A stretch of DNA of 63,628 nt, filler included, from Sanchytrium tribonematis (GCA_018985235.1; 10 parts of 10 records of this genome joined end to end with filler, not necessarily neighbours in it), one strand, 5' to 3'; counted from the whole stretch's first letter, positions 8,559 through 63,200 are shown. Notes: generated by a model from the letters alone, not told the origin. Made by a program: numbers and translations.

Positions 8559-9885
8559 TTAAGTGAATTTTAATTTACGCCATAATGCAGCTTTTATAGA
8601 GTTGAACTCATCCTTGTTATTTAAAAGAACCGAATTATTTTCTTGCGCTCTTCTAATCAAATAAGGCACAACCGATTCCAGTGGCCCAAATGGAACCTAT
8701 ATAAATATAAACTACATATTTGTATGCTCTATAATTTTGTTTTGCATTGTTAAACGTCATGGTATCATGCATGCCTAGTAACTGTCCTAAAACGGCACTC
8801 TTTTTAAAGTCTTTAAATAGCTTCTGAGCCAGAATCATGGATTGCTTGTTATGAGACGCGATAATGTGAGTACTAGTTGGTTTCTTTTGAACGTAATTAT
8901 GCAAAATGTTTATCGCGGAATCAAAATCTTTATGAGTATTTTCAATGTTATCATGAATTGGAGAATCATAACTCATTTCTAATGCTCTTTTGCGCTCGCT
9001 TACCATATACGCACCACGCACAATTTTGCAACCAAAAAGAAACTTTTCTTTTTCAGCAAATTCAAGCGACTCTTTTAAATCGTGTATTCCTCGTTTAAGA
9101 TACATTTGGAAAGTGGGTAAAACTACAGATTTTTCGTGGTTGTATTCCTTAGCTAATAACATAGAAATGACACTGATCGCAGGTTGGTAGTAGCTTTGTT
9201 CGGCATCTATAGTAACTTGAGTTCTATGTTGTGATGCATAGTCAATTATATCTTGAACTCTGTGGTATATTCTTTTGAAATCCAAAAGGTCTCTTTCGGA
9301 ACACTCTATCTTTTCGTTTAAATATTTATCGCTTTCTTCAGACTCAAAAATTCGCAACAATTCTTGCTTTCCGTGTTTCTTTTCAATATCTAAAATTAAA
9401 TTTGTTACTCTTTTTAAGGCAATTGTCGGTCCCAATGCAGTTAATTTAATAGCGGAGAAGTCACCTAAGCAGGAAGACTTAAGAACTTCACCATGAGTAT
9501 CAGCAAGAATATGTTGTCTATTTCGTTCCTGAATAGAGTCAATTAGAACATCATCTTGTTCGACTGAGTAATCTGCAATAGTTCCGATATTCAGCTGCTG
9601 AAGTTTAATCATTGTAGCGCGAAGATCGTCGATTTTTTCACCACCGCAAAAGACCTTGAATAATGTATTTCTTAAAAACCAATGACCCACAAAATGATCA
9701 TACATCCATGGTTTAATGTATTCTGGTGGAAATCTTGAAAGATTGTATGTTAAATAATATTGAAATAATTTTGGCCATTGGTATTCATCATATAAAGATT
9801 CTTGATTATATCGTGATATGTCTAACATATAAGCAGCTGTAGCGATTGCTGGTGACCATCGTACAGCCCTTCTAAAAAAATTCAT
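8559..9885 (-). CDS. PUT1: Proline dehydrogenase, 2 exons (9885-8716, 8696-8559), 435 aa
   Basis: IDAEQSYYQPA, KIVRGAYM, ASHN and GQLLGM motifs. Removing the 19-nt intron restores the conserved YKYVPFGP...PYLIRRAQEN C-terminus. Confidence 0.93.
8697..8715 (-). other. 19-nt spliceosomal intron GTAGTTTATATTTATATAG (phase 0)
   Basis: Excision restores YKY^VPFGP in proline dehydrogenase. A 16-nt alternative donor would add an extra Val and fits the consensus less well. Confidence 0.85.
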
Positions 9886-9914
9886 AAATGTTTTAAAATT
9901 TATTTTTCTCAAAA

Positions 9915-10943
9915 TTATTTCTTAACGCTCGCTTTTGCGATTGTTTTCAAAATTGCAGATCTTCCTATTCCTCTGTAGTCAAAGTACATCAGAACCACAT
10001 ACTTACCAGTTCTTTTAAATGATTCTGCCAAACTTCTGGCGTCGCTTCCAAATTTATGATCAACAACTTCCAGCATAGCATCCCCAGTGGAATCAAAAAC
10101 CAATTTTCCACCTTGTTCAAAACCATCCCACACAGATACAATGCTTGACATAGTTTCTGTGGCAAGAGATCTCAACGATTCAGGAGCAAATTTGTAAATT
10201 TTCTTTCCAACTGAATTTCCCACAGAGGTTGAAACTTTGGTAAGTCTTCTTACAACTGTATAATTCGCCACTTTGTATGTCTTTTCAGTGGCCTTTTGCA
10301 TATTTCGAACATATTTTTTCGTTGAGTCGGAAAATTCCACATTACTGCCTCTTTCAGAGCTGCTGACATAGCTTTTAGCACAAATTTCAATTTTAGATGC
10401 AAGTGCACTCCCTGCGTTATATAATCCTCTTCCAATATTAAGTCCGATATTGGCAATGTAGCCTTCCTTATTTTCTTCATTACTTGTTGCTTGAACAGCA
10501 TTGTTATCAAGATCTACTTCTACATTTTCATGTGGTTGAAAGTCGATATCACTTGATATATCAGACAGTTCTGCTTGCTCCTTTCCATAATTATCCATCA
10601 TGACTAATTTATTTGCCTTGGACATATCTGATAACGACGTATACATCCTAAGTAACTCATACAGCGTATCATCATGCTTAGGAACCTCGAACTTAACAGA
10701 AACATCACCCTCATTTAAAGTAAAAACCTTATTCTCGAAGGTGCAAGTAGTTTGTTTTGTTAAAGGATGAGTGAAATATCCAGAAGGAGTCAGAAAGCTC
10801 AGAAAAGTCATCCACATCTCAGATTGATCGGGTCCTGTATATAAGCATTGAAAAATATTAAGATCGTGAGTGACCTTTTGCTTTCCATCGTCGAATATTG
10901 TATTTGGAATTTTGCACATGCATAGGGAAGACTCAATGTTCAT
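9915..10943 (-). CDS. Spartin-like senescence-domain protein
   Basis: C-terminal VWDGFEQGGKLV...VVDHKFG...RGIGRSAILK matches the senescence domain pattern. Confidence 0.75.
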   Translation of the reverse strand: MNIESSLCMCKIPNTIFDDGKQKVTHDLNIFQCLYTGPDQSEMWMTFLSFLTPSGYFTHPLTKQTTCTFENKVFTLNEGDVSVKFEVPKHDDTLYELLRMYTSLSDMSKANKLVMMDNYGKEQAELSDISSDIDFQPHENVEVDLDNNAVQATSNEENKEGYIANIGLNIGRGLYNAGSALASKIEICAKSYVSSSERGSNVEFSDSTKKYVRNMQKATEKTYKVANYTVVRRLTKVSTSVGNSVGKKIYKFAPESLRSLATETMSSIVSVWDGFEQGGKLVFDSTGDAMLEVVDHKFGSDARSLAESFKRTGKYVVLMYFDYRGIGRSAILKTIAKASVKK

Positions 10944-11450
10944 GTTTTACATCTCCCGCTTACAATTTTGAATTAGACAGCATATGGAACACATTCAGTA
11001 TTTGAGTTATTATTTATCGATATGTTTCGAAAAATAAATACAGGTACTAGCTCATTGGAGATTCAAGTTAAGAATACAAGCCAGATAGTAAAGAAGACTT
11101 TACATTCTTGATGAACACTTTTTCGTAGATATTGATCCTAACAGTAACTTTCATGTAGTGATCACTTTGCAGGTGCGAGTCAGTAAATTATTTTATTTAA
11201 TTAATACAAGTTGTGGATTTGTACAAGGGTACATGTTGAGTACTTTGTAGGGGTGTATGTAAGAGAATTTATCTAAACACGTAAATTTTTGCATTTCGCA
11301 ACAGGCTACTCTCTAACAATGAATTTTATTCTTTGTCAGGATTCTGCTGTGTCCTCCTTGCCATTATTTGAAAATTATCTATATTTTTGATTGGAATGAA
11401 ATCAAAATTTGGAATTCATATTTTTAGAACTAAATACCAAAAAATTAATT

Positions 11451-12248
11451 TTATAGTTTAGAAACAGACAACACATGCTTCATCAAAATATTGGAGATGC
11501 TTCCTGAAGGAGGCACTTTAAAGTCATTATTTTCATTCTTTAACGCCGACGACAATTCCGTGCGTGAAACCCACCGAATATCTTCAAGCTCTCCATCTGT
11601 GCCATGATTTGTCAAATCTGAGCAAATAGCCGTGAAACCAAGCATTAGTTGAGATGGAAATGGCCAAGCCTGCGATTTAAAGTACTTGATATCATGAACA
11701 ACAAGGCCAGTCTCCTCCATGCACTCTCTCTTTACTGCCTCTTCTGCCGATTCAGCAATATCAATAAACCCACTAATCAAAGAATAAAAACCTTTAGGAT
11801 GTCTTGCTTGCCTTCCCAGTAAAATTTTGTCCTCGCTTCTGATTACAACGATGACAACTGGATCAACTCGTGGATGACTTATATTGATGGTTTTTTTAAA
11901 GGTTATACAATTTAAATTCGTACACTTTTTTTTGAAGCCATCCGGTAAAACCTTTGAACCACAGCAACCACAAAATTTGACCAGGTCATGAAAGTTCATC
12001 ACGGATTTGCCAAGAATAGCCAGATGGAGTTCTAGGCTATCTTTTAAATTCATAAAATCGCGGTCTCTTGTTGGTTCCGAAGTTGTTTTGCAATAGTACG
12101 CGACACTACCATCATGTCCAAGATAAATCGAATTCTGATCGGGTTCCACATAAACTAGCTGGCTTTCTTTTATAACAGCACTAGAATTAATCAAAATACA
12201 TTTCTTCACCAAGTTGGCCGATTGATCAAAGGGGATCCTACGTAACAT
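11451..12248 (-). CDS. NPY1: NADH pyrophosphatase (Nudix, NudC/NPY1 family)
   Basis: Zn ribbon FCGCCG, PRVDPVVI, Nudix box GFIDIAESAEEAVKRECMEETG, SQAWPFPSQLM; ends in SKL (PTS1). Confidence 0.93.
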   Translation of the reverse strand: MLRRIPFDQSANLVKKCILINSSAVIKESQLVYVEPDQNSIYLGHDGSVAYYCKTTSEPTRDRDFMNLKDSLELHLAILGKSVMNFHDLVKFCGCCGSKVLPDGFKKKCTNLNCITFKKTINISHPRVDPVVIVVIRSEDKILLGRQARHPKGFYSLISGFIDIAESAEEAVKRECMEETGLVVHDIKYFKSQAWPFPSQLMLGFTAICSDLTNHGTDGELEDIRWVSRTELSSALKNENNDFKVPPSGSISNILMKHVLSVSKL

Positions 12249-12368
12249 AAATTTTTTTGTACTCGCCGGTTGAAGTCTATGTTTTTAAATTAAGAAGAAT
12301 CGATATATCCCAGTCGATTATAATATTATTGTTCAAACATTTAAAATTGGGATTTTATTTGATATCAC

Positions 12369-12996
12369 TCAAACTAGATTTGCCTCACTACCAGTGTTGC
12401 CCAAATCTGTCGGAGATTTGTCATTTCTTCCCAAAGTTTCACTCTCCAGCATTTGGCTTTCATTATTAACGTTGACAGAAAACTTTTCTTCTGTGGGATC
12501 ATGAGAGCTACAATGGGGGCAAACTAAGGCTGACTTTTTGATTTCCTCGAGACAATATATGCAGCTACTAGCTTCTTCCTTTTTTTGCTTCAGTATGGCT
12601 TGAAGTAGGATCTAGGTCAATGAAAATTACTTTGGTAACGAGAAAGCAGAATAATGTCACTATTATAAAACTAATAATGGCAGATATCACAGCTCCATAA
12701 TTCATTGTTACAATTCCACTGGCATTTGCAGCAGCCGGATTTGGATAGGTTTGCCCATTGTATCCTTTTAAAGGCGCGTACAAATTCTCCAAGTTATTTG
12801 CACCTAGTAGGCCAATGATAGGATTTACGATATTGTTGACTATGGAAGTAACAATTGAATTAAATGCAGTGCCAATCACCACACCAATTGCCAACTCAAT
12901 CACATTTCCTCTCATTGCAAAGGCCTTAAACTCCTTGCCTAGATTCTTGGGCCCTCTCATGATTCTATTTCCTACTCTTTTAAACCTCCCAGGCAT
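12369..12996 (-). CDS. mscL: MscL-family mechanosensitive channel, copy 1, 2 exons (12996-12631, 12611-12369)
   Basis: [32 protein letters not shown] and [14 protein letters not shown]. Intron removal yields a CIYC...CPHC tail like the neighbouring paralog. Confidence 0.9.
12612..12630 (-). other. 19-nt intron GTAATTTTCATTGACCTAG (phase 0)
   Basis: Excision joins LVTK^ILLQAIL and brings the Cys-motif tail into frame. Confidence 0.85.
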
Positions 12997-13079
12997 AAAA
13001 TTTTCGAGGTTCAACGTTTAAATAATTATTTAGATATTAGGCCGGAAGATAATTGGCAGAAATTAGATTAATAATATTT

Positions 13080-13712
13080 TTATTTTGACTTAGATTGAGG
13101 GTCCAACAAGAGTGCCGTAGCCTGTGTGATTCCATTGACTTCATCATTGGTATCTTTCTTTAGAAAATCTTTTATTTGAGCATCGTCGAGGTCTTGAAAC
13201 GGATTTTTCGAAAGACAATGACAACAAATTAGCGCGTCAGATTTGATATTTTCGCAGCAAAACGAGCACTCGTCTTTCTCGTCGTCTTTATAATGTTTTT
13301 GTAAGTAGTGTAATAATGTATTAGCTAAAAGGTAACAAAAGAGAGAAACTAATATAAATGTAATTACAGAAGAGCAAACCGCTCCTAGATTCAACGTTAT
13401 TAAGCCATTTTTTTGTGCTTCAAGTACTGTTGTATATGTAGTCCCATTATATCCTTTTAAAGGAACATATGAATTTTCTAAATTACTCGTTCCCATCAAA
13501 CCAATAATTGGAGATAAGATATTGGAAACTATAGAATTGATAATGGTATTAAAGGCTGTGCCCATACATAGGGCAATGGAAAGCTGAACAATATTTCCCT
13601 TATTAATAAATTTTAAAAAATTTTGAGCTGCTGTTCTTGGTGCTTCAATTCCTCTTCGGATACCTCTTCTTGCAATGCTCGTGAATCTGACGTCCGGAAT
13701 GGAAATAGTCAT
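13080..13712 (-). CDS. mscL: MscL-family channel, copy 2 (no intron detected)
   Basis: FLKFINKGNIVQLSIALCMGTAF; shares the NLEN.Y.PLKGYNG loop with copy 1; CSFC...CCHC tail. Confidence 0.88.
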   Translation of the reverse strand: MTISIPDVRFTSIARRGIRRGIEAPRTAAQNFLKFINKGNIVQLSIALCMGTAFNTIINSIVSNILSPIIGLMGTSNLENSYVPLKGYNGTTYTTVLEAQKNGLITLNLGAVCSSVITFILVSLFCYLLANTLLHYLQKHYKDDEKDECSFCCENIKSDALICCHCLSKNPFQDLDDAQIKDFLKKDTNDEVNGITQATALLLDPQSKSK

Positions 13713-14519: not shown

Positions 14520-15417
14520 TTATAGCTTTTCTGTCAGCTCTGGAACAGCTTTGAATAGATCTGCGACAAGACCATAGTCAGCCAACTCCATCATGGGACA
14601 TTCTGCATCCTTGTTAATAGCGACAATGACCTTAGCATCTTTCATTCCAGCCACATGCTGAATAGCGCCACTGATTCCAACTGCAATATATAGCTCAGGA
14701 GCTACAACAACACCAGTTTGGCCGACTTGATAGGCGTTATCAACATAGCCAGCATCCACAGCTGCTCTTGAGGCTCCTATGGCTGCGCCAAGTTTATCTG
14801 CTAGAGGAGTAATAACACTAAGTGAGAGACAAATACGTTTTGAAATTTTCCGCGGACTTGAGAGCGCGCCCTCCAGAGACCACAACTTTTGCCCCACCCA
14901 GTTCTGGTCGATCTCCTCCACTGGTTTGGACATTAGTAGTCTTGACACGAGGTTCAGATAATTTGATTTCTTCTATTTCACCACTCGATTCTTTCAACGA
15001 TTCTCCTGTAAATGCCGTTGGTCTAATGCTAAAAAGAATTTGATCTTCATTAGTTTTCACCTGAGATACAACATTTCCTGCAAACATGAGGCGCGTGAAG
15101 TCCTTAGATCCCTCAATTTTAGTTATGTCACTTATCATGGATTTACCCAAAATAGCTGCTAATCGAGGAAGTACGCTTCTTCCTTTGGAATCGTGGGCCA
15201 TAATGATGTGTGTGTATTTTTTAAAATCGATTTTAATACCATGTAAGTCTTCTGGCTTTAAGTCGCGGTTTAGTAAAAAATGTTTTTTTGTAGTGTCGGG
15301 AGCTAATTTTTTGTGAGACAAGACGCTAATGTCTTTTCCGATTTTCTTCGCTGCAGCAGCTGATTGAGGAGTTGGATTAATTAACAAAATTTGTCTGAGA
15401 ATGACATTGTTAAACAT
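14520..15417 (-). CDS. ETFA: Electron transfer flavoprotein alpha subunit, 2 exons (15417-14837, 14817-14520)
   Basis: Two ORF-track halves ([15 protein letters not shown] and [19 protein letters not shown]...QVGQTG) are joined in frame by a 19-nt intron. Confidence 0.95.
14818..14836 (-). other. 19-nt intron GTATTTGTCTCTCACTTAG (phase 2)
   Basis: Excision gives ENFKT^[10 protein letters not shown]. Confidence 0.9.
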
Positions 15418-16215: not shown

Positions 16216-16732
16216 CTAATCGAGACCCAAAGTTCTTTTAACTAGTTGTCTAACCTACATAAATCTAGAATACCTGTCTCTCGTATTCTTTGGGACTTTC
16301 TCGCAGCAATTTGCTAGCGTCAATATTAGCAGCTGATTCAGGATTAGGCTCGTGTAGCATACTTACAACACTAAGTAATATTTTTTCAACGCTTTGAACA
16401 GGAGACCATCTCTCCGAGCTATCTTCATAACCATATTGATCCTCGCCTGGAGCGTGTAGAATTGAAATACAAACCTCTCCATTTTGATATACATTTGGAT
16501 GCAGCATCTCGCAAGTAAATCGCATCTTAGGTGGTTGCAAAGGATAGTTGGGTGGAAATGTGAGTTTTGCAGTAAAAACACCACCTTCGTATGGACATCC
16601 GTCTGGTCCCATTATGATAGCATCCCATTCCAAGTAGTTTGATTCTTCAGAGGGACCGGCTGTAATTCCGTCTGGAGCATCTTTGCATAGCTGCTTGTAT
16701 TCGTTCATTAAGCGCTTGACTGCAGAGGACAT
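16216..16732 (-). CDS. UBC7: Ubiquitin-conjugating enzyme Ubc7/UBE2G2, 2 exons (16732-16274, 16254-16216), 165 aa
   Basis: [16 protein letters not shown], acidic loop, [16 protein letters not shown]. The intron restores the last helix EYERQ^[12 protein letters not shown]. Confidence 0.95.
16255..16273 (-). other. 19-nt intron GTATTCTAGATTTATGTAG (phase 0)
   Basis: Contains the in-frame TAG that truncates the ORF; excision completes the Ubc7 C-terminus. Confidence 0.85.
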
Positions 16733-16887
16733 ATTTGTAATGATGACACAAGGAGATTTGATCATCTGCTTTATTGAGTCCAAATATAAACTCAATGCTG
16801 GCCAATAGCAGTGTCTAACTGCTTATTATTATTATTGCGATTGATTTTACATTATATTTCAAGCCCTGCCATTGTAAGCCACTTTAA

Positions 16888-21750: not shown

Positions 21751-23503
21751 CTAGGCTAGTGCTTCATTTAAACTTTGAAAAAATCGATCACCTACTAGTG
21801 CCGCCAAACCACTTCTAAATATCTTCTTTTGACAACTTCTCCTCATTTTAACAACGCTTACAAGAATATTTCTTTCGTGATAACTTTTTACCACTTCGTA
21901 AAGAATTTCAATTGCACTAAATAAATCAAATGTACGTTGAATCAACTCTTTTCATATTACCTATATCAAATATTATATGATGAATTGCTGCTTGTGAAGG
22001 ATGGTCTGAGGGATGATGTTCCAAATGACCATGGGCTTCTAATCGATGTACCCGTTCCATCATTTCAGCTGAATTTGCAAAGTGCAGAGACTCATCAATT
22101 TGTAACAGCAAAACACCGTCTATTCCTTCAGATTCATCAGGAAACTCCGAAAGGGCAAGATACTCGTCGCTAGTACCATGCCGCCTTCCTAAAAGTGTGA
22201 TCTTTGGAAGTGTAGTATTTCTAACATTAAGTAATAATGCAATTAATATAGCAAATAATGCTCCGTATTCAATGCTTATAGACAAGGTTATTATAAATAC
22301 GACGATACTTATAACAATATCTTTCCAAGCATGTAATTTAATTAAAAATGATATTTTTTGTCGCTCGATTAAATTATAGGCAGCCTGAGTTACAATACAT
22401 GCAGTAGCTGCCAGAGGCAAATATTTGAAAGCTGGTAACAGTAAAAGCGTGCTTGTCAAAACGAACAGCGCTACAAAAATCTGGCTAATAGGAGTCTCTA
22501 CATGGCTATTATGTGAAATCATGCTTCTTGCCAAAGATCCATAAACTGGCATACAGCCAAAGAATGAACCGACAATATTAGTCAGACCTAAGGCCACTAA
22601 TTCACGATTTCTGCTTATAGCGTACCCTTTTATACTCGCAAAAGATTTGGAAGCAATCATGCTTTCCATAAATCCAATAACAGCAATAACACCAGATGGT
22701 CCTATAAGGCTTTTCACAGAAGTGTCTAGATTTTTTAATGGTAGAGACATCTTAAATAAATCACCATGTACCTCGATATTGCCAACAATTGCTATGCCAT
22801 AAGTCTTAAAATTTAGCAAATAACTGAAAAATATGTTCAAAATAACCAAGGGCAAGATCACAGGAACCTTAAATTTTAATATTTTTGAAAATGAATTATA
22901 TAAAATAATAAATATCAAGCAGAAACAGCTTAAAAGTAATGTTTGAATATGAAGCGTATCCAGTGTTTCAATTTCGCTCCAAAGTAGCTCGAGTGGCGAA
23001 GAACCGCGTGCAACATGTATACCAAACATAAACGGTATTTGTTCTATAATAATTGTGCAGGCTACCCCACTTATAAATCCAGCAATAATTGGCCTCGAAA
23101 AAATTGCATCCAAAAATCCAAATCGCATTAAACCCAATAATAAAGTTATAATTCCGCATATAAATGCAATGCTGTTTTCATGCTTATATTGACCAATTAA
23201 AATACAGACAACAGCATCCAGTCCAATGGATAAACTATGGGAAGATCCAAAAATTGCATATATAAATAAAGGAAAGATTGTACTCTTTAATCCAACAACA
23301 GTGGGTATTTTTGCTAATGTCATGGTATAACTTATAACTTGTGGAATTAAAATACATGTCAAAGTGAGCGCTGCTGTAATATCTCTCAGGAATTTGGTTG
23401 AATTGTAATCTTGCATCCATTTCATTATGGGGACATAATATGTCGATCTTCGTATTATGTGCTCACTTGAAGAGAGTAGCGGTGATAAGGAATTAAAATT
23501 CAT
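21751..23503 (-). CDS. SulP/SLC26 anion transporter with STAS domain, 2 exons (23503-21936, 21916-21751)
   Basis: NRELVALGLTNIVGSFF, GSLARS, LHFAN. The STAS motif VDST^AIEIL is completed by the intron. Confidence 0.92.
21917..21935 (-). other. 19-nt intron GTACATTTGATTTATTTAG (phase 2)
   Basis: Excision joins the two ORF-track pieces in frame within STAS. Confidence 0.88.
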
Positions 23504-23523: not shown

Positions 23524-24334
23524 TTAAAAAAACCATCCCAGTCTGTTAGCACCACTATATGTATCTTTTGGCTTAGAAGTAGGAACTGGCCCGGAACTAC
23601 TGCTTCCGGAATTAAGTCCAGAATTTGGATTTGGCCCAGTACAATTTCCCCACCATTTAGATGATACTGAATAGCATGAACATAGATCATTAAATGGTTT
23701 GTTTGTGGAATTAAAATACCATTGAAGTGTTGCACTAGTGAATTTAGATTCTGCAAACTCATTCAGAATCACAACATCGTTTCCTAAAGATGAAAGTACA
23801 GATTTGATTTGGGCTTCAGTAGAATTGTAATCTACACTATCTTTGCTCCAAATTGTAGGGTAAAAATTAGACGAAAGCAATTGCTGGTTGACCGAGTCGC
23901 TTAGAGCAGTATTAGTATATGCAACAAATTTTGGCACTGCTCCTAAATTTTGAAACCAAACGTCTTTCTCTGCATTTAAGGTTGCAGAAATGTCATTTGT
24001 AAATTTTTTTATAACATTCATTCCTAATCTAAATTAAAAAAATTTACGTATGTCCATAGTTAGCAATCTGCTTCACCATATTCCAATCTGTGGTTGGGCT
24101 TGTTTCAATCATAAATGTTCCCTTAATTTTTAGCTGGGTCAATGCATTCAAAATATCAGCAGTGTGAGCAGAAGGTCCGTTGTAAAAGGTAAGTGCAACT
24201 CCACTTCCACATGTACTTTTGGCGGGAGCTGTTTCTGAGCATGTAGCAACTGGTACTCTTCGTTCCAAAATATGTTCAGGTGTAAAGTAAAACACAGCGG
24301 CTAATAAAACGAAGATACTAACAATTTGATACAT
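23524..24334 (-). CDS. Secreted NodB/chitin-deacetylase-fold (CE4-like) protein, probably non-catalytic, 2 exons (24334-24048, 24028-23524)
   Basis: Signal peptide; VALTFYNGPS (cf. TFDDGP); LKIKGTFMI; GHT^LGMN; WSKDSVDY. Confidence 0.8.
24029..24047 (-). other. 19-nt intron GTAAATTTTTTTAATTTAG (phase 2)
   Basis: Excision fuses ORFs 24044-24334 and 23524-24021 in frame at the GHxIG-like motif. Confidence 0.88.
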
Positions 24335-24541: not shown

Positions 24542-25495
24542 CAATCATTAGTATTCCCGGAATTAGATCAAGTGCAGCAAGATTGGATCACAAATGATCC
24601 ATATACGAGCATGTTTTGTGATGTTTTGAAGTGGATGCGTGTGGTATTTTTACAGGATACTGCTATATTAATACATGATAATGATTATCAGCATCATTTA
24701 TTATTTGAACATCCAATTTTTAGCGATACTAGGTTTATATCCTTTTCCAAGGCATTAAATCAGCACGAAATGGTTTACAAGGCATTACCAATCAAAACCA
24801 CAGCATTTCTAGAACAAGCGACACCAGAAATATGCCAGATATTGAAGCAGCAGCATCAATTAATTACTTCTATGCATCAGGAAATCATCGACTCTAAAGG
24901 GCAAATAAACATGCTAATTGGCCATGTTGCATGTTTAAATAATCCATTTATTAATCAACTAGCTAATAATCTTGCTCAGAAGACACCAATTGCATCCAGA
25001 CCATGTACTCCACCCACGCATTATCCACTGACTCCTCAACCTTCAAATCGTCCCAATAAGCAAGTTGATTCTGTTTATTCATCAAATCATTCACGAAATA
25101 GCTCATTTAATCCCATAAATGTCATAAATAATCCATATTCTACTTTTCCTTCTTCCCCAAAGAAATGCCAAATAAACAAGCATATTACTCAAATAAGAGA
25201 TCTAATTAAGTATTGGTATGATGGCATTAATGGCAAACCTAGTGTGATGGAGTTGAATGCCGAATTTGGGACAGCATGGCGTAAATCTGCTGCTTGTAGG
25301 CAATATTATCGAGGGAGAAATCTGCTTATGAACGAGATAAATAGAATGGCTGTAAAGCACAGTATATCAAGGGAAGATGCTGGAATGATGTTGGAGCAAT
25401 ATCATCAGCAAATGAATCCTAATGCTGCTAATGCAATCCCATGGTTGATAAAATACATCAAGGATAATCCAGAGAATATGAGAATATACAAATAA
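24542..25495 (+). mobile_element. 5'-partial Crypton-F-like / Ndc10-II + GCR1_C ORF (transposon or domesticated derivative)
   Basis: LKWMRVVFLQDTAIL...LFEHPIFS (end of the Ndc10-II / Crypton recombinase region) plus WYDGINGKPSVMELNAEFGTAWR...RQYY (GCR1_C). Confidence 0.7.
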
Positions 25496-29974: not shown

Positions 29975-32900
29975 TTATAGCTTTCGAAGCTGCTCCATAT
30001 GACACGTTATTAAAAATTTATACTTATCTTGAAGCTGTGCGATGTTTGTCGACAGCATCTTGATGAAGTAAATTGGTTCTGGCACAAAGTAGTAGTCCAG
30101 TTTTCCTTGTTTCCAAGAATTGGTCATGTAGACCTTTTCTCCATTTTTAAATTCGGGGAGACCCTTTTTAGAGTTTAATTGTGTTAAGCGCTTTTGCCTT
30201 TTGTTGTAGGCTCTTTGATTGGCGTCTCGCCGTAGCTCTGTAATGTCATTAGAAGTAAAAATTCTTTCCCGTTTGATAGGATCTATTTTGCTTTTGAATA
30301 ATAGCATAGAAGGAGCCTCGCCTGTGGCGGAGTTAGTCGCATTCTTCATCGAAACTAATGCTAAGTGAAGTGATTCTGTCCAGGATAAATTTTGTGAATG
30401 TTTCGAAGTTTTACATCGAGTTCCCTGTGTTTTCTTTCTACTGCATTGCTAAAATGTGCATATGGGGCTACAGATTGTATTTCTATTCCCTCTTCCTTCA
30501 AAAAGAGTCTAAATTCTTTTGAATTAAAGGGTACGTTATCGGCTACAATTTCTGTAGGAGGTCCAAATATTTGGATCCAATGCCTTTTCAGTGCTAATAT
30601 GGCGTCTTTGGAACCATTTCGAGCTACTGGGACCGCATTTATAAATCTAGTGGAATCGTCTAGTATTGTAAATAAATACTTACAGTCTTCCTGATAGTTT
30701 GCAGGCTCTATTGGCAAAGGACCTTTGAAATCAATATAAATTCGGTGCAAAGGCTGTGCTGGAATACGTGTCTTGAAATGATGTTCCAGAGTTGGCGCCT
30801 TAGACAATAGGCATGTCTCACAACTTTTGACAAATTTTCTAATTCTGGTCTGTTTACCAGAAAAGTAATAATCTTTCAAGTAAATTGACACTTGTGCGGA
30901 GCCTGCATGTGCCGCTATATTACTATTGTGTGCTATTGATAGCAGACTATCAACAAGATGTTCAGGTACATAAAGCTTTTTACCCGACTTGTGTGTTTTA
31001 TAAATGATTCCATCTAATTCTTGAACATGTGCAGTCTTGTTATTTAATAGAGATTGAAGAGATAAATCTTTACTTTGTTCAAGCTGCCAGTTGATTGTCT
31101 CGAAAGTCGTTTTTACTGTTGGATTCAATTTGGTATCCGTTTCTTGAGAATCCACCGACTTTTGACTACTTAACTTCATACTGTTCAAAGTAGAGCTACA
31201 TGATGGTTCGTAGCCGTAACGGCTTAATGCGTCAGTGACTGTATTTTGAGGGCCCGGAATATATGCTATTGTCAAGTGGTATTGTTGCAATTTGCAAATC
31301 CATCTTGCTAATCTACCGGACTGTTCTGAGTCAAATAACCATCGAAGATTACCGTGATCTGTAAAAACTGTCACACTGGTACCATATAGAAATGGTCTGA
31401 ATTTATCTAGAGCGTAAAGTATTGCTAAGCATTCTTTTTCCCTGACATCATAGTTTTTCTCAGCACCTTGTAGCGTACGGGAGATAAACCAAACCGGCTT
31501 TTTATCCTGAGCTAATACTGCACCAACACCATATTTACTGGCGTCTGTGTACACGTAAAATGGTTGATCAAACTGTGGATGAGCCAGAGTTACTTGGTCG
31601 GATACTATTACATCTTGGAGAGTACGGTAAGCCGCCTCACATTCTTTAGACCATTTAAATATTGCGTTTTTCTTTGTTAAAGCCTGTAAGGGCTGACTAA
31701 TTGTCGCATATTTGTGGATAAAGCACCGATAAAAGCTAGTTAAGCCTAGAAATTGTCTAACTTGGGTGACTGTTTTTGGAGATGTCAAGGCCTTCACCGC
31801 ATCAATCTTCTCGTCGCTGGCTTGTATGCCATCTCAGTTACTTTGAACCCTAGGAAATTGATTCTAGTCATTCCCAGACGACATTTCTTAGCGTTAAGGG
31901 TAAGACCGTGCTCTTCCAATTTGCTGAGTACTCCTTTGAACTTTCCCAAAATTTCTTCAAATGTAGATGCAAAAATCAGAAGGTCGTCTAAATAGATCAA
32001 AAGATCTTTTCCTATCATTTTATCGAAAATTTCATTCATTAATCTTTGAAAAGTAGCTGGAGCTGTTGACAATCCAAATGGCATTACTTTGAATTGGTAA
32101 AGTCCAAATGGTGTCACAAATGCTGTCTTTTCTTTATCTTTTTCGGCTAAATTGATTTGCCAATATCCGGACTTTAAGTCCAAAGAAATAAAGTATTTTG
32201 CTCCATGTAGATTTGAGAGTAAGGATTGTAAATTGGGAAGAGGATAAGCGTCGAATTTAGTATGCTTATTTAGCTGTTTATAATTAACGCAAAATCTTAC
32301 TGACCCATCAGGTTTTGGTATCAAAACCACCGCGGATCTCCAATCCGATTTTGAAGGCTCAATTTTGTCGTCAAGAAGCATTTTTTCGCACTCGGTCCTT
32401 ATCATTTTAATTTCCTCAGGGCTTAGCCTTGGAATTCCTGATCTGACCGGTTCACAATCCGTTCTAATATGATGTCTTGTTTTGACTTTTGTTTTATTTT
32501 CTGAACCAAAGCAAAGTGGAAATTGTTTAGCAGTTTCCATCATTTGTTTTCTTTCGTTCTCTGTCAAATCATCATTTAAGACTAAATCAAGTGGAGTATT
32601 TTCTTCCTTGTCGTTTGGCAGTATGATATCTTCACTATGTAAGTCATAATCATTAGTCATATCTTTAAGAATTTCTTGATACTGAAATTTCTTAAGTTTG
32701 CTGTTCTTAGCTGTACTAACATAATTGCACATGGCAGTCTGTACAGCTACTTCATCTGAACTGCGATTCATTCGAATTGGAATCCTGTTTATCCAAATAA
32801 AGTTTCATTCAAAATCAATGGTCATATTTTGTAATCTCATGCTATCCCTACCGACAATAATGCTAGACGCAAGATTACAAATAATATGAAAATGCTGTTT

Positions 32901-37675: not shown

Positions 37676-38886
37676 TAAAAACTTAGGATAGCCGATTGGT
37701 TGATGTAATATAGCGTGAAAGAGTTTGTCCACATTTTCAGGATTTCCAAATGGAGGCCTACCACACAACATTTCATACATTACAATCCCAAGTGCCCACC
37801 AATCTACTGTTCTTCCATAAGTCTCATCTTCCAATACTTCTGGGGCCAAATATTCTGGAGTTCCACAAAATGTAGAGGTTGTATCATTTCTACCAATACC
37901 TTCTTTACATAGACCAAAATCCTAAATGAGGTAAAATTTACAGTAACTTTAATGTGACCATCACTGTCTAGAAGCAAATTTTCCAATTTTAAGTCACGAT
38001 AAACTATTCCTTTGGTGTGTAGATATCCGAGTGCTAGTGTTATTTCCGCGACATAATATCTGCTTCTTTCTTCCGAAAATTTTCTTTCTTTCGTTATATG
38101 ATAAAAAAGCTCTCCTCCGTTGATATACTCCATGACGAAATACAAGCGATCGTTGGTCTGAAATGAATAAAATAATTTGACTAAAAATGGGTGATCAAGT
38201 GATTGTAGAATACGGTTTTCTACAAGAACATGTTCAATTGCATCGTCGTCTGATAATCCATTTTTTTTAATGACTTTAATGGCAAAGAATTCAGGGTCTG
38301 TTGCTTTAGGTGTTTTGTGCTTAGCTAACATAACTTTTCCATAGTTTCCTTTTCCAACAACTCGTAAAAATTCAAAATCTTCTGGCTTCATAGTCTTGTC
38401 GAAAGTATTTAAAGTTTCGCCAGCACTGCCACTAGTTCTTGCTGCGTTTATGGCCTCGACCCAATTATCCCTATCCGTCTTCGTGTCTGATTTCATGTAT
38501 CTTTTCTCTCCATTAGGAAGTGTTAATTCGAAACAGGTATTTCCAATTTTGTCATATAATTTGCATTCTGCCCCATTCAATAAAAAACAATTTGTTGGTG
38601 ATTTTTCTTCTTGAGGATCCTTGAAGTAATATAATTCATTGGGGTACAGAACAAACCATCTCGCTCTCCAATTTTTAATGTAATTTCCTTGTTTAACTAA
38701 CCAACCTTGTTTAAGAGGTGCTTCTGTCTTGTCATTAACAGTCACATCTTGGAGATTACGTGCTAGAGATTTTGGAGCTTCTTTTACTGCTGGAGCAGTA
38801 TTATCTTTTGGTGACATGGGTAATTTTTTTATTAAGCCTCTTTTTTTTGATACAAATTTCGGGTATCCAGAAATCACGGAATTCAT
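37676..38886 (-). CDS. AKT: AKT/PKB-like kinase (PH + AGC kinase), 2 exons, 3' partial
   Basis: [34 protein letters not shown]; after the intron DFGLCKEG...[16 protein letters not shown].. YGRTVDWW. Start may be 38886 or a later ATG. Confidence 0.9.
37922..37941 (-). other. 20-nt intron GTAAATTTTACCTCATTTAG (phase 0)
   Basis: Excision restores HIKVT^DFGLCKE exactly. Confidence 0.93.
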
Positions 38887-42178: not shown

Positions 42179-43067
42179 ATGATACTCTTTTCTCTTCTAC
42201 TCGCTCAAATACTCCATTCCAAATTACAACTAGTCTACAGACACCCAACCAGTCCACGATATAAATCAACCCCATTTTATCCAGAATGTCCCACTCAATA
42301 TATTGCATTTCATCAATCTGCATCAAATGAAAATGAAGCTAAAGCAATGATTGAATCATGCATTAATTTTGCCATAGTTCCAGATGCAATTCAAATAGCA
42401 CATCCCAAAATAGTCTATAATCCAATCATGCGCCATCATTTCAAGCATACCATCCAATTATTATCCCATGACTCTTTATTATCATTATTCAATCAATATC
42501 ATCAATATCATGTAGATATCATGATGACTATTGATTATAAATTGTATTTAATGTATAGAGACAGTATTCTCACATTGTTTCAAGATGTGATTCAAAATGA
42601 TCTTGCAAAATTCAATGCCATTCAAAGCAGTATCACTGTCAATGACAAATATGGATTAATCTATTGGTATCAATGGGTATTATGGATTAATCTATTGGTA
42701 TCAATGGGTATTATGGATTAATATCATGCAACCCAATTTAATATCATTAGAAATGACAAATAATATTATAGTTTCAATAGATGCCAATTTTGAGACATTT
42801 CAATATGATTTATTTGATATTGTGAATATGGTTTATAAAGTGGACCAAAATAATTATTGTGGATTGCTATTTATTGAGTCACGATTTAATTGGTATAGGC
42901 AACAATTTTGTAGAAATAAAGAAAATAGGAAAGAATGTTTGAGCAAATGGCAGACAGTTAGAAATGACCGTACTATTTATGATAGTTTCAAAAATATATG
43001 TGATGAATTGTGGAATGAAGCAGCAACAGATCAAATTAAAAACATGGGATTGAATGTTAAAGAATAA
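42179..43067 (+). pseudogene. Secreted orphan gene split by a 31-bp tandem duplication
   Basis: MILFSLLLAQ start. Deleting one repeat copy joins ORFs 42086-42721 and 42726-43067 in frame (WVLWINIMQPN). Confidence 0.7.
42650..42722 (+). repeat. Perfect tandem repeat, 31 nt x 2.35
   Basis: TATGGATTAATCTATTGGTATCAATGGGTAT at 42650 and 42681, then TATGGATTAAT at 42712. Confidence 0.95.
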
Positions 43068-52925: not shown

Positions 52926-53951
52926 TTATTCCATTAAGATTTTTTCTGGGTAGATGGCACCACTTTGTTGAATGACTTCTCGCGCGAGGTAATTTCCAGC
53001 TTTGACACACTGTTCAATGTCCTTTTCCAGCACCAATTTTGCCAAAAAACCTCCAACAAAGGCATCACCTGCACCATTCGTGTCTACAATTGCGGATTGC
53101 GGAATTTGCTCAACAGGATAGGTCTTGATACCTTCAACTGTAGCTATAACAACATCTTCAGACCCTTGCGTGATGACGACTGTTCTATAACGATTTGTTT
53201 TCTTTGCCATTTTTTGAATATACTTTGCAATGGCAAGCATATCATTGGAATTTTCCAATTGAAGACTTTCTGCCACAGCTTTTGCTTCCGTCTCATTGCA
53301 AAAAACATAATCGGAGTATTCAATTAGTTTAAGTAGTGGCTCTTTGAAAAACTGGGCAATAAAAGGAGCAGATACATTCATTGTGACGATTTTGTTATGC
53401 TCAGCCGCATGCTTACAAATTAATTCCATAGAAGCGGGGCTGACAGTAAGAAAAAACCCGCTTATATAAAACACTTTTGCTTTAGTTAATAAATCTTGAA
53501 TTTCAGGTTTTTCAAAGTGAGATTCTTTAAATTCATTAGCAGCTGCCAGATTGGCGACTAAAGAGCGGTGTTTTCCATTCACGAGTACAGCGCAAGTTCC
53601 AGTCTGTACAGTTGGATGAATCATATAAGCTGTTTTTACTCCATCCTTACCGGCGATTTCGGATAGCTTTTTACCAAAATCATCGTTTCCAACACAACCA
53701 ATAAACGTTGTCGATCCTTTGGGCAAAAATTTTTGAGCTCCTCTAATGGAGTTTTGAGCAGCTCCTCCAGGAATGTACAATGTAGATGGAATTTTTGCAA
53801 GTTCTGAATATATTGATAAGTGTTCCTCATTAGCCAATATCGCGTCGTTTTCCTTCAATTTGTACTTCTTTAAATATTCGCCATCTACAGACGTAACCAA
53901 GTCCAACAAAGGGTTGCAGATTCCCAATAATACTCCGTCTCCAAGTGTCAT
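52926..53951 (-). CDS. ADK: Adenosine kinase
   Basis: NPLLD, GGAAQNS, RSLVANLAAAN, DTNGAGDAFVGGF. Confidence 0.96.
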   Translation of the reverse strand: MTLGDGVLLGICNPLLDLVTSVDGEYLKKYKLKENDAILANEEHLSIYSELAKIPSTLYIPGGAAQNSIRGAQKFLPKGSTTFIGCVGNDDFGKKLSEIAGKDGVKTAYMIHPTVQTGTCAVLVNGKHRSLVANLAAANEFKESHFEKPEIQDLLTKAKVFYISGFFLTVSPASMELICKHAAEHNKIVTMNVSAPFIAQFFKEPLLKLIEYSDYVFCNETEAKAVAESLQLENSNDMLAIAKYIQKMAKKTNRYRTVVITQGSEDVVIATVEGIKTYPVEQIPQSAIVDTNGAGDAFVGGFLAKLVLEKDIEQCVKAGNYLAREVIQQSGAIYPEKILME

Positions 53952-53973: not shown

Positions 53974-54983
53974 TCAAACTGGGCTATGCATCCCAAGTTT
54001 TGTGTTGAATTCTAATTTGGATCGTCTTTGCCAACGGCTCCATCTGGCTCGATCTTTTTGTCTCAAAAAATACTGAATGGCAAGCATAATAAAAAGGAAC
54101 ACCACAAAAGAAAGCACCCAATAATAGATCGGAATTCTTTTACCAAGACTAGTTACATCCTCGATATAAAAGAAAAACCATAAAACTGCAACACTCATGC
54201 TAATAATACCACTGACTATCCAAGACTTGGTAAATGGGTTCACATCGCTAAACCTAGAGTTTCTGGAAGAAAATTGAGCCGAAAGAACAATTATATAGAC
54301 GCTGAGACACAAGTTTGCATAATGCTGTGCTAAATTGTGACTGTTTAAATACTGAAAGGACCTAAATTAGTGACCAGTACATTATGTAATTAATTAAATC
54401 GAATATTAAAAAAACCAGACTACGAGGTATAACTGCTAGTAGAAGGCTGGCAACTTCTTTTCGTTGCTTCTTATTTCTCCTCATATACAATTTCATAGAA
54501 TTCTCATTTTCCAGAGACAAAAATGCAAGAGACTGCAGAATTATAATGATGTTTATCGGTACCAACGAATTCAGCGTAAAGCGGTACTGATAGTCTGAGC
54601 ACTGTATGATGAGTGCAGAACAGAGCATATTTAATTGAATTAAAAAACCATAAATTACAAACATTTGTAAATTAGATGAAATTGTTCTTGCGTCTTTAAT
54701 TACGTCATAAAGAGCAAACAGACTCGCATCATATGATAGAAACAAGTCTACAAAATGATTGCTGTGCATAATCAGTTTCCCTTCTTCCGAATTTAAATCT
54801 ATGCTTCTTGGAACAAGCCCAACTGAGATATCAGCGGCAGCAAAGCATGGCAAAAAACGTGAATTTAGACAAGACCCTAGCACAGCAACACTTTCTCCCC
54901 AATACTGAAAAATACCAAGCATTTCTGTTATAGATGTTGGACTGGCTTCTGCGAATAAAGAAACATGTAAAGGTATATCATCG
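53974..54983 (-). CDS. TMEM94: TMEM94-like P-type-ATPase-related membrane protein, 5' partial, 2 exons (to 54381; 54361-53974)
   Basis: DDIPLHVSLF...IFQYWGESVAVLGS and terminal QRRSKLEFNTKLGMHSP; the halves are joined by a 19-nt intron. Confidence 0.85.
54362..54380 (-). other. 19-nt intron GTACTGGTCACTAATTTAG (phase 2)
   Basis: Excision puts ORF 53974-54312 in frame; CTAAT branch-like motif. Confidence 0.87.
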
Positions 54984-56347: not shown

Positions 56348-56822
56348 CTAGTTGAGAATAAAATCTATAGATCCCAAATGCATTTGCCTGTGTTCTGCAA
56401 CTAAAATATCGAGCCCATTTACTTTTACTGTTTTGATTTTCATAGGTTCTTTATGGAATGATTTAATGTGCTTATTTAAATCAAATCTACGTTAGTTAAA
56501 AGTACCTCCATTTAAATTTGACTTTACAGGGCAGACAAATAGCATCTATGATGTTGAAATGTTTTTTGGAGTGATTTCCCATATTATTGCTGCCTTTGAC
56601 TTGATGATAACAATTATTCCATAAACAGATTCCCAGCCGTCTTACCTGATGGTCTCTGCGCACATGTTGAAAGCATTCGGCATCATTATTAAATATTCTG
56701 TTACATTTCAAATTATTGCTGGTCCACAAACAAATTGATTTCATACTGGTAGGGACTAGACTAGTGAGGATATCGTGTTCATTCGATGAGTCTTGGGGGT
56801 CGATGGACTCGATTTGATGCAT
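56348..56822 (-). CDS. Three-finger C2H2 protein of PacC/Gli-like architecture, 2 exons (56822-56506, 56486-56348)
   Basis: C.W....C..H..DH and C.W..C..H...H. The intron completes finger 3 as CLPCKVKFKWR^FDLNKHIKSFH. Confidence 0.85.
56487..56505 (-). other. 19-nt intron GTACTTTTAACTAACGTAG (phase 2)
   Basis: Canonical ACTAAC branch sequence; excision supplies both His ligands of the finger. Confidence 0.93.
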
Positions 56823-59004: not shown

Positions 59005-59197
59005 TTGTTATTTGGGGTGGTTTTGCAGTTTTGTATGAATGCAAGTCATTTGATTGCTAGACGTCGTATTTGATTGGTTAAATTCAAATGAATTTGGTTG
59101 CATGCGTTTGTCCAAAAATTGATTACCTTTGAAATCGACTCGTTTATTTTATTTTTCAAAACAATGCTTCAACATTAAAATTACCCATTTTTTAAAA

Positions 59198-59309
59198 ATG
59201 TACGCGCTATTCTCGACCATTTTAATTTCCATCTCTGTAGATTGTCCCATCATCATCCAAATGGGATTAGATATGGATATCAAATACACCAATACAGCTT
59301 ATCAAGTGC
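59198..59309 (+). CDS. N-terminal fragment of a secreted protein (3' partial)
   Basis: MYALFSTILISISVDCPIII; open to the gap. Confidence 0.4.
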
Positions 59310-59409
59310 NNNNNNNNNNNNNNNNNNNNNNNNNNNNNNNNNNNNNNNNNNNNTTAATTAATTAANNNNNNNNNNNNNNNNNNNNNNNNNNNNNNNNNNN
59401 NNNNNNNNN

Positions 59410-60095: not shown

Positions 60096-60204
60096 ATAAA
60101 TTGAATATTCTACAAGTCTAAACGATTGACTCGCATTATATTATGGTCCGTATAGTAATTCGGTTATTTTTTTTGTATTCTGAAACACTCGAAAAACATT
60201 TTAT

Positions 60205-63200
60205 ATGAGTAGAAAAGCAGTTTATACCGCCGACGAAAAAAGACCAGGTGTGGACGATATGACCTTACTCACAAATCTTACAAATGATGAGATCGTGAAG
60301 AATTTGCAAACAAGATTTCAATCCGGCGTCATTTATTGTTACATCGGGTTCGTGTTGATCGCAGTTAATCCATTTAGGGATCCTGGGGTATACACGCCAG
60401 AAATTCTTAATTCTTACAGAGGAAGAATTAGAATTGAAATGGCACCTCATGTCTACGCTATCGCTGAATATATGTACAAACAAATGATACAATTTCGAGC
60501 AAACCAGTGTTCAATCATAAGTGGTGAGAGTGGGGCAGGCAAGACCGAAAGTGCTAAAAGAATTTTGCAATACATTGCAGAGGTTTCGATTAAAAATACA
60601 AACGACACAAAAATGACACATTTGAAAGACATGATTTTGGCAACAAATCCTTTACTTGAGGCATTTGGAAATGCCAAAACTTTAAGAAATAATAACTCTA
60701 GTAGATTTGGAAAATATTTGAATATAGTGTTTGATTTACGAGGTTTGCCGATTGGTAGCATCATAACGAATTACTTACTGGAGAAGGGAAGAGTCGTTCA
60801 ACAAACTAAGGAAGAGAGAAATTTTCACATATTTTATCAATTTTGCAAGGGTGCAACTGCTCAATATAAGCAAGACTTCGGAATTGCTGGTCCAGAATGT
60901 TATGTTTACACTATGACTTGCACGGACATCGCCCATGTCGATGATTCAAAAGATTTTAAGGAGGTTGTAGATGCTATGAAAATTATAGGTATTCCGTCCA
61001 CGGATCAATACGACGTGTTCAGAATTTTGGCAGCAATTTTATGGATTGGAAATTGTCAATACAGAGAAAATGACAAAGGAGAAGCCACAATTCCAGATGA
61101 AAGTGCATTGCAATCAGTTGCGTATTTACTACAAGTGGATCAGAACACGTTAAAAATTGCCTTAACTACCAAACTAGTTGTTACAAGTCAAGGTTCTAGG
61201 ACCTCCTTTTACTATTCCCCATTAAATTTCACACAAGCTACTGCTGTTCGGGATGCATTAGCTATGTCTTTATACTCAAGACTGTTCGATTGGATTGTAG
61301 TACGGTTAAACGAAGCTTTAAAACCAATTGGCGATATAGAAACGTCAATTGGAATTCTTGATATTTACGGTTTCGAAATTTTCGAAAAAAATAGTTTTGA
61401 ACAGCTATGTATCAATTATGTCAATGAAAAATTACAACAAATATTTATTGAGCTTACTTTAAAAGCTGAACAAGAAGACTATACGAATGAAGGTATACAA
61501 TGGACTCCGATTAAATATTTTGACAACAAAATTGTATGTGATCTAATTGAGGAGAAAATTCCTGCTGGCGTATTTGCTGTATTAAATGATAGTGTTGCTA
61601 CCGCTCATGCAGACAGCGAAGCCGCTGATAAAAGTTGTGGAGATAGATTGAGAAACATTTCCAATCCACATTTTCAGCACCGGGGAATCAAATTTGTAAT
61701 TAATCATTACGCTGGTGATGTCACCTACGACTTGACAGGTATAACAGACAAGAACAAAGACACTATGAATAAGGATCTATTAGAAATGTTAAAGTCCAGT
61801 CCAAATAGCTTGATACAAAGAATATTCCCTGAGGAAGTTGATAGGGACAATCGAAAACGTCCATCGACAGCCAGCGATAAAATTAAAAATTCAGCCCAAT
61901 CTTTAGTAACAACACTCAAAGGTTGCGAGCCAAGCTACATACGGTGTTTAAAACCAAATGCCAATAAAAGTCCAAAAGAGTTTGACAATAAGATGATGAA
62001 TCATCAAGTGGTATATCTTGGGCTTTTGGAAAACATTAAAGTCCGTCGTGCTGGGTTCGCGTATCGTCAGACCTTTGAGATATTTATAGATAGGTTCTAC
62101 TTATTGACTCCAAGAACAAGCAAAGGAGGAGATCTTATCTGGAGAGGATCGAAAAAAGATGGTTGCAAAGCTATATTACAGGATACTGGAATTGCAGAGT
62201 CAGAATGGCAGCTGGGTATTACCAAAGCTTTTATTAAAAAACCCGAAACTTTATTTACTTTGGAGAGTATGAGAGACAAATTTTGGCATAGAATGGCGTT
62301 CAGAATACAAAAACAATGGAAAAAATACATTGCTTTAAAAAAAGAGAGTGTCATTAAAATTCAAAGATATTGGAGAACATATAAGGGTTACGGGGGCTAT
62401 GACGACAAGCGGAAAATTGGGCACCAGTTGGTAACAGGCAAAAAAGAGAGAAGCAGATTGAGTATTCTCTACTATCGAAAATTTCACGGCGACTATTTGA
62501 ATGTGAATGGAGAAAATGGTGATTTTTTCAAAGATCCAGCCCAGATGGAGCCGATGGAGGTATGCACTTTCAGCGCAAGAATATTTATTTTGGTTCAAAG
62601 GATGCTAAGAAGTGATAAACTCAGTATAAGATATATGGTCATGACAAAATCGCATCTATCTCTAATTCAAATTAAAGAAGAAGGTTCGGACATTGTCCCT
62701 TATCTTTACAGAAAAATCGCTCTGGCAAATTTGAAAGGCATTACAATGTCAAAATATGTTGACGATATTATTGTGCTTCAATTTGAAAAGGAAGATGATT
62801 TAGTAATTTCATCCCTTTTAAAAACGGAAATTGCCACACTTCTTAGTCGATTGTTTAAAGTCTCTATTACTTTTATTGAGGAGCGAATTGTTGTACTTGA
62901 TAAAAAGGAAAAGGTTTTAAGTAAGATAAAGTATCAATACCAAGAAGATTTCAAAGGTTGGCTTTTCAAAAAGGGAAACATCACAGTTGGCAAAGGGCTT
63001 GATCCTACTACAAGTATTATTTTTTAACTTAGAAATCAACAATCCGCCTAAAACTCTTCAATCTGCTAAAGTGATTCCCAAGAAACCACCCGTTCGAAAA
63101 ACCAGTACAGGTCCAGTCCAACCTCAAAAGCAAAATATTGCATTACCTGCACCTAAGCAACAAAGTATTTTACCTACTCCTTCGCCTGTACAATCGCCTC

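Follow-up and report, generated by a model that had tools for sequence, protein, structure and literature searches.

Introns of 15-16 nucleotides (nt) are known from the heterotrich ciliates Stentor coeruleus (PMC9505925) and Blepharisma undulans (PMC13685798), introns of 18-21 nt from the nucleomorph of Bigelowiella natans (PMC6009652) and introns of 16-17 nt from the parasite Mikrocytos mackini (PMC10245619). The shortest fungal introns that we found in the literature are those of 22 nt in Encephalitozoon cuniculi (PMC3629993); two introns of Rozella measure ~30 nt (PMC6349667), the "ultra-short" introns of Cryptococcus are defined as <60 nt (PMC11913375), and, outside fungi, the median in myxobolids is 22 nt (PMC13644364). 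Here we analyse a 63,628-nt stretch of sanchytrid DNA (the window), in which ten genes are each interrupted by a GTA...TAG segment of 19 or 20 nt. We propose, with a probability of roughly 0.9, that these segments are spliceosomal introns of the major (U2-type) class, reduced in sanchytrid fungi to an almost constant 19-20 nt.

By analogy, the sanchytrid system would work like the tiny-intron systems of the ciliates and the nucleomorph. With the heterotrichs it shares the GTA start, the TAG end, a near-fixed length, a low density (0.26-0.50 introns per gene in the ciliates), probably, going by the A. gromovi annotation, a spliceosome whose core is kept, and a putative branch A at -6, which is position 10 of 15 in the ciliates (PMC9505925, PMC13685798). 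However, the sanchytrid introns are 3-4 nt longer (predicted loop of 14-15 versus 10-11 nt) and carry a clearer YTNAY motif, the hosts belong to Fungi and Alveolata, respectively, and heterotrich introns are known genome-wide whereas the sanchytrid set comprises ten, known from sequence alone. The B. natans introns are similar in length class, in GT-AG ends and in their setting of genome reduction, but ~900 of them occupy 283 genes, and they have no discernible branch motif (PMC6009652); the sanchytrid introns have a fixed branch motif, a density of ~0.2 per kb of coding DNA (10 introns among ~50 genes) and a place in the main nucleus. Against this ~0.2, a density of 1.30 is given for Allomyces (PMC8476143). 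Should the window be typical, a genome of 11 Mb would contain some 1,500-2,000 such introns.

M. mackini is likewise a parasite with a narrow intron length range and conserved intron sequence, yet its introns are shorter and its spliceosome is strongly reduced (17-19 proteins; U2, U4 and U6). Mikrocytid metabolic and transporter genes lack introns (PMC10245619), whereas sanchytrid PRODH, ETFA and SLC26 genes have them, and, unlike in mikrocytids, U1 proteins, U2AF and SF1 are annotated in the sanchytrid Amoeboradix gromovi. The closest kin with miniature introns is E. cuniculi (22-76 nt), which shares GT-AG ends and a branch motif near the 3' end; its introns are, however, longer, more variable, ~37 per genome, marked by a strict 5' motif and poorly spliced (PMC3629993, PMC6349667). 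Yarrowia lipolytica matches the geometry, with a branch motif two bases before the AG, an A at -6 and, as described, no polypyrimidine tract, but its introns are rather long and bear a strong ACTAAC (PMC2483917), compared with which the sanchytrid motif is looser. Myxobolid myxozoans and dicyemids (median 22-27 nt) are likewise parasitic opisthokonts with a GTa donor and a retained U2AF; these animals differ in having longer introns with a broader range and a weak branch signal (PMC13644364).

Our literature searches returned no report of sanchytrid introns or of 19-nt fungal introns; subscription papers were thinly covered by them, and a report may exist. In the paper on sanchytrid TPPP (PMC10459994) the word "intron" occurs in a reference only. 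Tiny introns are thus apparently undescribed for Sanchytriomycota. If true, introns below 22 nt would have arisen independently in Fungi as well, in the kingdom with the best understood spliceosome, and each component of the sanchytrid machine could be set against its counterpart in yeast structures, which bears on what sets the minimum intron length.

Frame repair and anatomy of the ten segments

The window consists of ten contig pieces joined by spacers of the form N44-TTAATTAATTAA-N44; it is gene-dense, with ~34% G+C. The initial annotation had placed ten GTA...TAG segments in ten genes on five of these pieces, nine of them 19 nt long and the one at 37922 20 nt long, and had stated that removing each segment mends the reading frame. 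We indeed observed all ten at these positions (Table 1), nine on the minus strand and one (63014) on the plus strand, and the repair succeeded in every case. The introns occupy phase 0 (four), phase 1 (one) and phase 2 (five), and none of the ten lengths is divisible by 3. When the segments are left in place, translation of seven genes runs into an in-frame stop within or directly at the segment; in the remaining three the frame is shifted, and a stop follows after 20, 20 and 45 codons.

Table 1. Candidate introns of the window and the intronless marker gene. The caret marks the junction; paired numbers after a Pfam name are the last profile position before it and the first after it.
Gene (extent)	Feature coordinates	Strand	Length and phase	Remarks
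Proline dehydrogenase, PRODH (8559-9885)	8697..8715	-	19 nt, phase 0	YKY^VPFGP; Pro_dh 249/250
MscL-family gene (12369-12996)	12612..12630	-	19 nt, phase 0	Frame repair; paralogue colinearity
ETF alpha subunit, ETFA (14520-15417)	14818..14836	-	19 nt, phase 2	ETF_alpha 22/24, split codon
Ubiquitin-conjugating enzyme UBC7/UBE2G2 (16216-16765)	16255..16273	-	19 nt, phase 0	Last exon 12 codons
SLC26 transporter, STAS domain (21751-23503)	21917..21935	-	19 nt, phase 2	STAS 55/57, split codon
Polysaccharide deacetylase gene (23524-24334)	24029..24047	-	19 nt, phase 2	Repair joins 101+167 codons
AKT/PKB kinase (37676-38886, gene cut by contig end)	37922..37941	-	20 nt, phase 0	T^DFG; Pkinase 140/141
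P-type-ATPase-like (presumed TMEM94-like) gene fragment (53974-54982)	54362..54380	-	19 nt, phase 2	Frame repair and motif
C2H2-like (presumed) zinc-finger gene (56348-56822)	56487..56505	-	19 nt, phase 2	Frame repair and full CTAAC motif
Type I myosin MYO1 (60205 to window end)	63014..63032	+	19 nt, phase 1	Between TH1 and SH3 tail
Adenosine kinase, ADK	52926..53951	-		Intronless, taxonomic marker outside the intron set; 67% to A. gromovi EP00835

Pfam profiles were scanned against both exons separately, and continuity was taken to mean that profile positions resume across the junction. Such continuity was found in four genes (PRODH, AKT, the STAS domain of SLC26, and ETFA). The repair is further supported by length or a paralogue in two (UBC7 and MscL) and by domain order in one (MYO1), with weaker support in the remaining three. 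In UBC7, the UQ_con match ends at 134 of 140 on exon 1, which extends to residue 154 in a PDB homologue of 165 residues; the final 12 residues come from exon 2, so that the length matches those of PDB homologues. The spliced MscL product is colinear with the intronless tandem paralogue at 13080-13712. In MYO1, Myosin_head and TH1 fall on exon 1 and SH3 on exon 2, whereas the deacetylase match (4-59 of 124) falls on exon 1 alone; both introns were also found by the blind gene model described below. An ESM Atlas search led from the P-type-ATPase-like gene to Cation_ATPase_C clusters, without Pfam continuity. Its TMEM94 label and the C2H2 label of the zinc-finger gene are presumptive. The zinc-finger gene, having no Pfam match, is the weakest of the ten cases.

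The 3' end reads Y-T-N-A-Y-N-T-A-G in 10 of 10 introns, with Y at -9, T at -8, A at -6, Y at -5 and T at -3 fixed. At the 5' end GTA alone is fixed, positions +4 to +6 are mostly N-U-U in the RNA, and position +5 is T in seven introns, A in three and never G. The extended U2-type donor consensus has G at +5 (GTRAGT/GTAYGT), and the ten introns depart from it. Judged by their ends, frame and branch motif, they nevertheless look like U2-type introns apart from this extended donor. Stentor, Paramecium, B. natans and myxozoans have likewise cut the donor to GT(A) (PMC2483917, PMC13644364).

The YTNAYN context precedes just 34 of the 1437 TAG sites in the window. A scan for GTA-N-YTNAYNTAG, as proposed in the initial annotation, gave nine matches at 19 nt, compared with 0.4 expected, and these were exactly the nine 19-nt introns; none of 200 shuffles got to nine matches at any length from 12 to 60 nt. 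Over the same range, there was no match at 18 nt, one antisense match at 21 nt and at most three at any other length. The looser pattern GT..YTNAYNYAG added three 19-mers, compared with 3.4 expected. We also applied a blind gene model that was codon-based, allowed GT-AG introns only and had a flat 10-150-nt length prior. In all three settings, 19 nt was the commonest length (4-5 times, any other length at most three times). When limited to GTA..TAG introns of 12-40 nt, the model recovered nine of the ten introns together with six extras. The earlier statement that no long intron is present also held, none being found in the ~48 kb of coding DNA examined. The introns are concentrated toward the 3' end, nine of the ten falling in the second half of the coding sequence (p = 0.02 by a sign test that includes three incomplete genes). 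Yeast introns, by comparison, are 5'-biased. The first-described introns of E. cuniculi are strongly 5'-biased too (PMC6349667), in contrast to the sanchytrid set.

Other candidates were rejected. The long introns proposed by the blind model would fuse neighbouring genes, each of which has a start, a stop and domains of its own. The six extras of the restricted model measure 15, 15, 18, 21, 23 and 39 nt, and five of them lack the motif; the 18-nt extra lies inside a V-ATPase f domain whose alignment is gapless, and the 23-nt extra fits the looser pattern only and lies inside a retroelement. Eight in-frame GTA..TAG stretches of 18 or 21 nt within open reading frames (ORFs) lack the branch motif. 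Motif matches at 12, 14, 15, 21, 23 and 27 nt lie between genes, on the antisense strand or within an open frame, and stay at background level. U12-type introns have an RTATCCTT donor and a TCCTTAAC branch site, and neither consensus is present in the ten sequences. A group I or group II identity was rejected too, 19-20 nt being too short for a ribozyme and no Rfam match being present in the window.

Sanchytrid relatives as a held-out test

On protein similarity, the source organism belongs to Sanchytriomycota and is kin of, but distinct from, A. gromovi, because the ADK and PRODH identities and the AKT tree all point there. The window ADK is 67-69% identical to three proteins, one of them from A. 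gromovi in EukProt, and at most 54% identical to the others among 120 listed. PRODH is 73% identical to A. gromovi P0122 and 68-71% to two ENA entries, the rest reaching at most 42% over short stretches. In an AKT tree of 25 rows picked from 120 matches, which include fungi and aphelids, the window groups with its three close relatives at 100/100 support, and the tree does not resolve the sister group of this clade; by its naming style, the EukProt row P0256 probably represents A. gromovi. None of the 40 loci recovered when metagenome contigs were searched with the ADK protein looked sanchytrid-like; the best was 44% identical, and the others reached no more than 49%, on short segments. Sanchytrids described so far are algal parasites with genomes of 10-11 Mb (PMC8371127).

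The motif came from the window's own ten segments, and the relatives therefore provide the held-out test. Their public proteins are unspliced read-throughs whose tails translate the intron, and intron lengths can be read from these tails because the proteins were called without introns. By back-translation we determined which intron start and length lets the possible DNA of a tail encode the conserved second exon; as a control, the procedure gave the known 19 nt (PRODH) and 20 nt (AKT) for the window's own entries. For PRODH, A. gromovi P0122 and ENA P0124/P0251, the latter two with one common tail, both yielded 19 nt at the window's site. For AKT, all three relatives break at the window's site, with 19 nt in EukProt P0256 and in ENA P0257. 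The shifted frame recovers VPFGPL.. in the PRODH relatives and DFGLC.. in the AKT relatives. All four PRODH and AKT tails resolved at 19 nt fit the branch motif, for which the chance is 0.042 each (in the window, 10 of the 238 open stretches of the form GT-N15-AG fit it). The SLC26 protein P0374 (72% identical) ends at the same STAS site, and 19 nt is the sole motif-compatible length up to 23 nt. In total, seven distinct tails in three genes comprise five of 19 nt at the same site, one of probably 20 nt and one that gives no length. Intron interiors vary among the species whereas length and motif are constant, which implies intron behaviour rather than assembly error. Taken together, these comparisons support tiny introns as a lineage-wide feature of sanchytrids. 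A more distant SLC26 protein, P0384 (37% identical), also breaks at the STAS site of the window; its tail, S-Y-V, could be encoded by a GTAYGT donor, which hints that this intron position predates sanchytrids.

Several observations weigh against the proposal. We infer the splicing of all ten segments from sequence, and the relatives enter as proteins only, their DNA being unseen. The ENA PRODH protein P0123 has either a 20-nt intron 10 nt downstream, after VPF-G, or a 30-nt intron at the shared site; its displacement from the site common to three other genomes possibly reflects intron sliding or a 30-nt intron. AKT P0255 leaves the frame at the common site, its tail ending inside the intron. 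Among non-sanchytrid matches, same-site breaks occur in 1 of 149 for SLC26, 0 of 101 for PRODH and 0 of 102 for AKT; most of these matches are spliced models that would hide breaks, and the ancestry of the positions is barely probed by them. The motif count is partly circular, the motif having been derived from the ten segments themselves, and GTA..TAG spacing taken without the motif does not single out 19 nt (34 at 19 nt, 32 at 16 nt and 32 at 31 nt). The blind model was exact on just 4-5 of the ten introns; in MscL, AKT, PRODH and the TMEM94-like gene it preferred different junctions. Moreover, the P-type-ATPase-like and zinc-finger genes match no significant Pfam family, so that the assignment of their two introns draws on frame and motif.

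A putative splicing route and its competitors

The introns would be laid out as GTA, a short U-rich spacer, YTNAY and N-TAG. The U2-pairing branch motif, with A at -6, is present in 10 of 10 window introns, and all five resolved 19-mers of the relatives are compatible with it. U2 small nuclear RNA would pair with YUNAY, and the A at -6 (intron position 14 or 15) would be bulged and attack the 5' G, which gives a predicted lariat loop of 14-15 nt. The UAG three bases beyond the motif, the first AG at a fixed distance, would be joined next, with no space for a polypyrimidine tract. With a 5' site of GUA only, U1 pairing may contribute less to recognition than the branch helix and the spacing do. 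In standard pairing registers, the gap between the 5'-site helix and the branch helix would be ~2 bases, and 19 nt may be the floor of the spliceosome. The introns are probably ancestral ones, shrunken to the shortest length that the sanchytrid spliceosome can loop. A unit of 19-20 nt gives sharp predictions concerning the U1, U2 and U6 sequences and the loss of Slu7 and Prp18.

The spliceosome was inventoried from the A. gromovi sheet of the published annotation table (PMC8371127, supplementary file 4), no spliceosome protein being encoded within the window. It lists Prp8, SF3B1/2/4, SF3A1-3, both U2AF subunits, SF1/BBP, U1-70K, U1A/U2B'' and Prp40, as well as Prp16/Prp22-type helicases, Prp17, Isy1, Dbr1 and Upf1. 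U1C, Slu7 and Prp18 have no entry by name or identifier in this proteome, which is intron-blind and half-annotated, and their absence is weak evidence of loss. The short branch-to-AG distance would fit with the missing Slu7 and Prp18; in yeast, Slu7 is unnecessary at branch-3' site distances of <=9 nt (PMC10158995). While near-fixed-length tiny spliceosomal introns in a fungus are most likely, the accompanying suggestion of a modified spliceosome finds no support, most core factors being listed for A. gromovi. Tiny introns alone need not imply a rebuilt machine, since heterotrichs splice 15-16 nt with a largely intact spliceosome (PMC9505925, PMC13685798). As a tentative extension, to which we give somewhat less than even odds, all Sanchytriomycota would have the shortest typical introns in fungi, possibly in opisthokonts, spliced by a near-complete spliceosome minus Slu7, Prp18 and perhaps U1C, with a 3' bias that reverses that of other intron-poor fungi, and missed by intron-free annotation.

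It is conceivable, though unlikely, that the segments are poorly spliced and mostly retained, as in microsporidia, and serve mainly as regulatory elements or decay triggers. The short introns of E. cuniculi are spliced at <20% on average (PMC6349667), the sanchytrid 5' site is weak, Upf1 is annotated in A. gromovi, and none of the ten lengths being a multiple of three, retention would cut the product short. However, the introns split essential motifs (the kinase DFG and the ETF FAD domain), and enough spliced mRNA must be made because the second exons are conserved as protein across four genomes; the 18-21-nt introns of B. natans, moreover, are mostly spliced at high levels (PMC6009652). Retention concerns efficiency and would be compatible with the tiny U2-type introns proposed here. 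Somewhat less likely still is that the introns are real but the 19-20-nt set is one class among others, many longer introns or introns divisible by three having been missed by a method based on one window and on frame breaks. Only ten introns were seen in the coding DNA, frame-preserving introns leave ORFs unbroken, and the P0123 intron may be 30 nt long. Nevertheless, the motif scan is independent of ORF breaks and gave background counts at the other lengths from 12 to 60 nt, the looser scan left no excess of 19-mers, and Pfam and PDB alignments of uninterrupted genes were examined without sign of hidden inserts.

Removal by some route other than the spliceosome, such as DNA-level excision, ribosomal bypassing or frameshifting, or tRNA-type splicing, appears very improbable. 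The spliceosomal route is itself deduced, removal having been seen at no level, but GT-AG ends together with a U2-complementary motif at a fixed distance in 10 of 10, the use of all three phases, the annotation of the spliceosome and Dbr1 in a relative, and the lack of any Rfam family match at gathering scores in the window all argue against such routes. Least credible of all is that the segments arose as artefacts of assembly or amplification, or are frameshifts in pseudogenes that can be repaired by coincidence. Although the assembly is in fragments and whole-genome amplification was used for the published sanchytrid genomes (PMC8371127), the same breaks, with the same length and motif but different interiors, recur in independent assemblies (A. 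gromovi in EukProt, and ENA), and the segments are no copies of their flanks. We therefore retain U2-type introns of near-fixed length as the best explanation of the ten segments.

Gene catalogues and other features of the window

The proteins of two sanchytrid genomes were predicted by TransDecoder on genomic contigs, and in that paper "intron" occurs in the reference list only (PMC8371127). The initial annotation had warned that predictors blind to such introns would miscall these genes, and we found 8 of 9 unspliced upstream frames verbatim in EukProt; the check covered nine genes, with the P-type-ATPase-like gene outside the set, and the 96-residue deacetylase piece was the one absent. The two ETFA halves are separate EukProt entries, and the second exon of the deacetylase likewise has its own. 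In the window, roughly every fifth gene is affected, and short first or last exons drop out altogether. Sanchytrid proteomes, as used in fungal phylogenomics and gene-loss studies, would hold truncated and split proteins, and gene counts and absences merit a re-check. In the A. gromovi table, the SF1/branch-point binding protein appears as two adjacent ORFs (NODE_116 p11 and p12); this is probably a further gene split by an unrecognised tiny intron.

The two tandem MscL-family genes (12369-13712, minus strand) have a C-terminal CxxC..CxxC, and only one of them carries an intron. MscL is mainly a bacterial family, and these genes possibly stem from an old transfer. A Ty3/gypsy-type retroelement at 29975-32804 (minus strand) encodes reverse transcriptase, RNase H and integrase, with a frameshift between the first two that lacks the intron motif. 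An ORF at 24542-25495 (plus strand) combines NDC10_II and GCR1_C domains, a combination found in Crypton-derived fungal genes. A perfect 31-nt tandem repeat of 2.4 copies (42650-42722), located where two ORFs of unknown function overlap, may be an assembly duplication. The dynein heavy chain at 1-5404 (minus strand) is divergent: its first AAA domain is preceded by only ~1050 residues, and DHC_N1 gave no match, which is of interest because sanchytrids are losing the flagellum. Finally, a secreted-looking tyrosinase at 6850-8556 (plus strand) has a long Pro/Thr-rich linker and a hydrophobic C-terminus.

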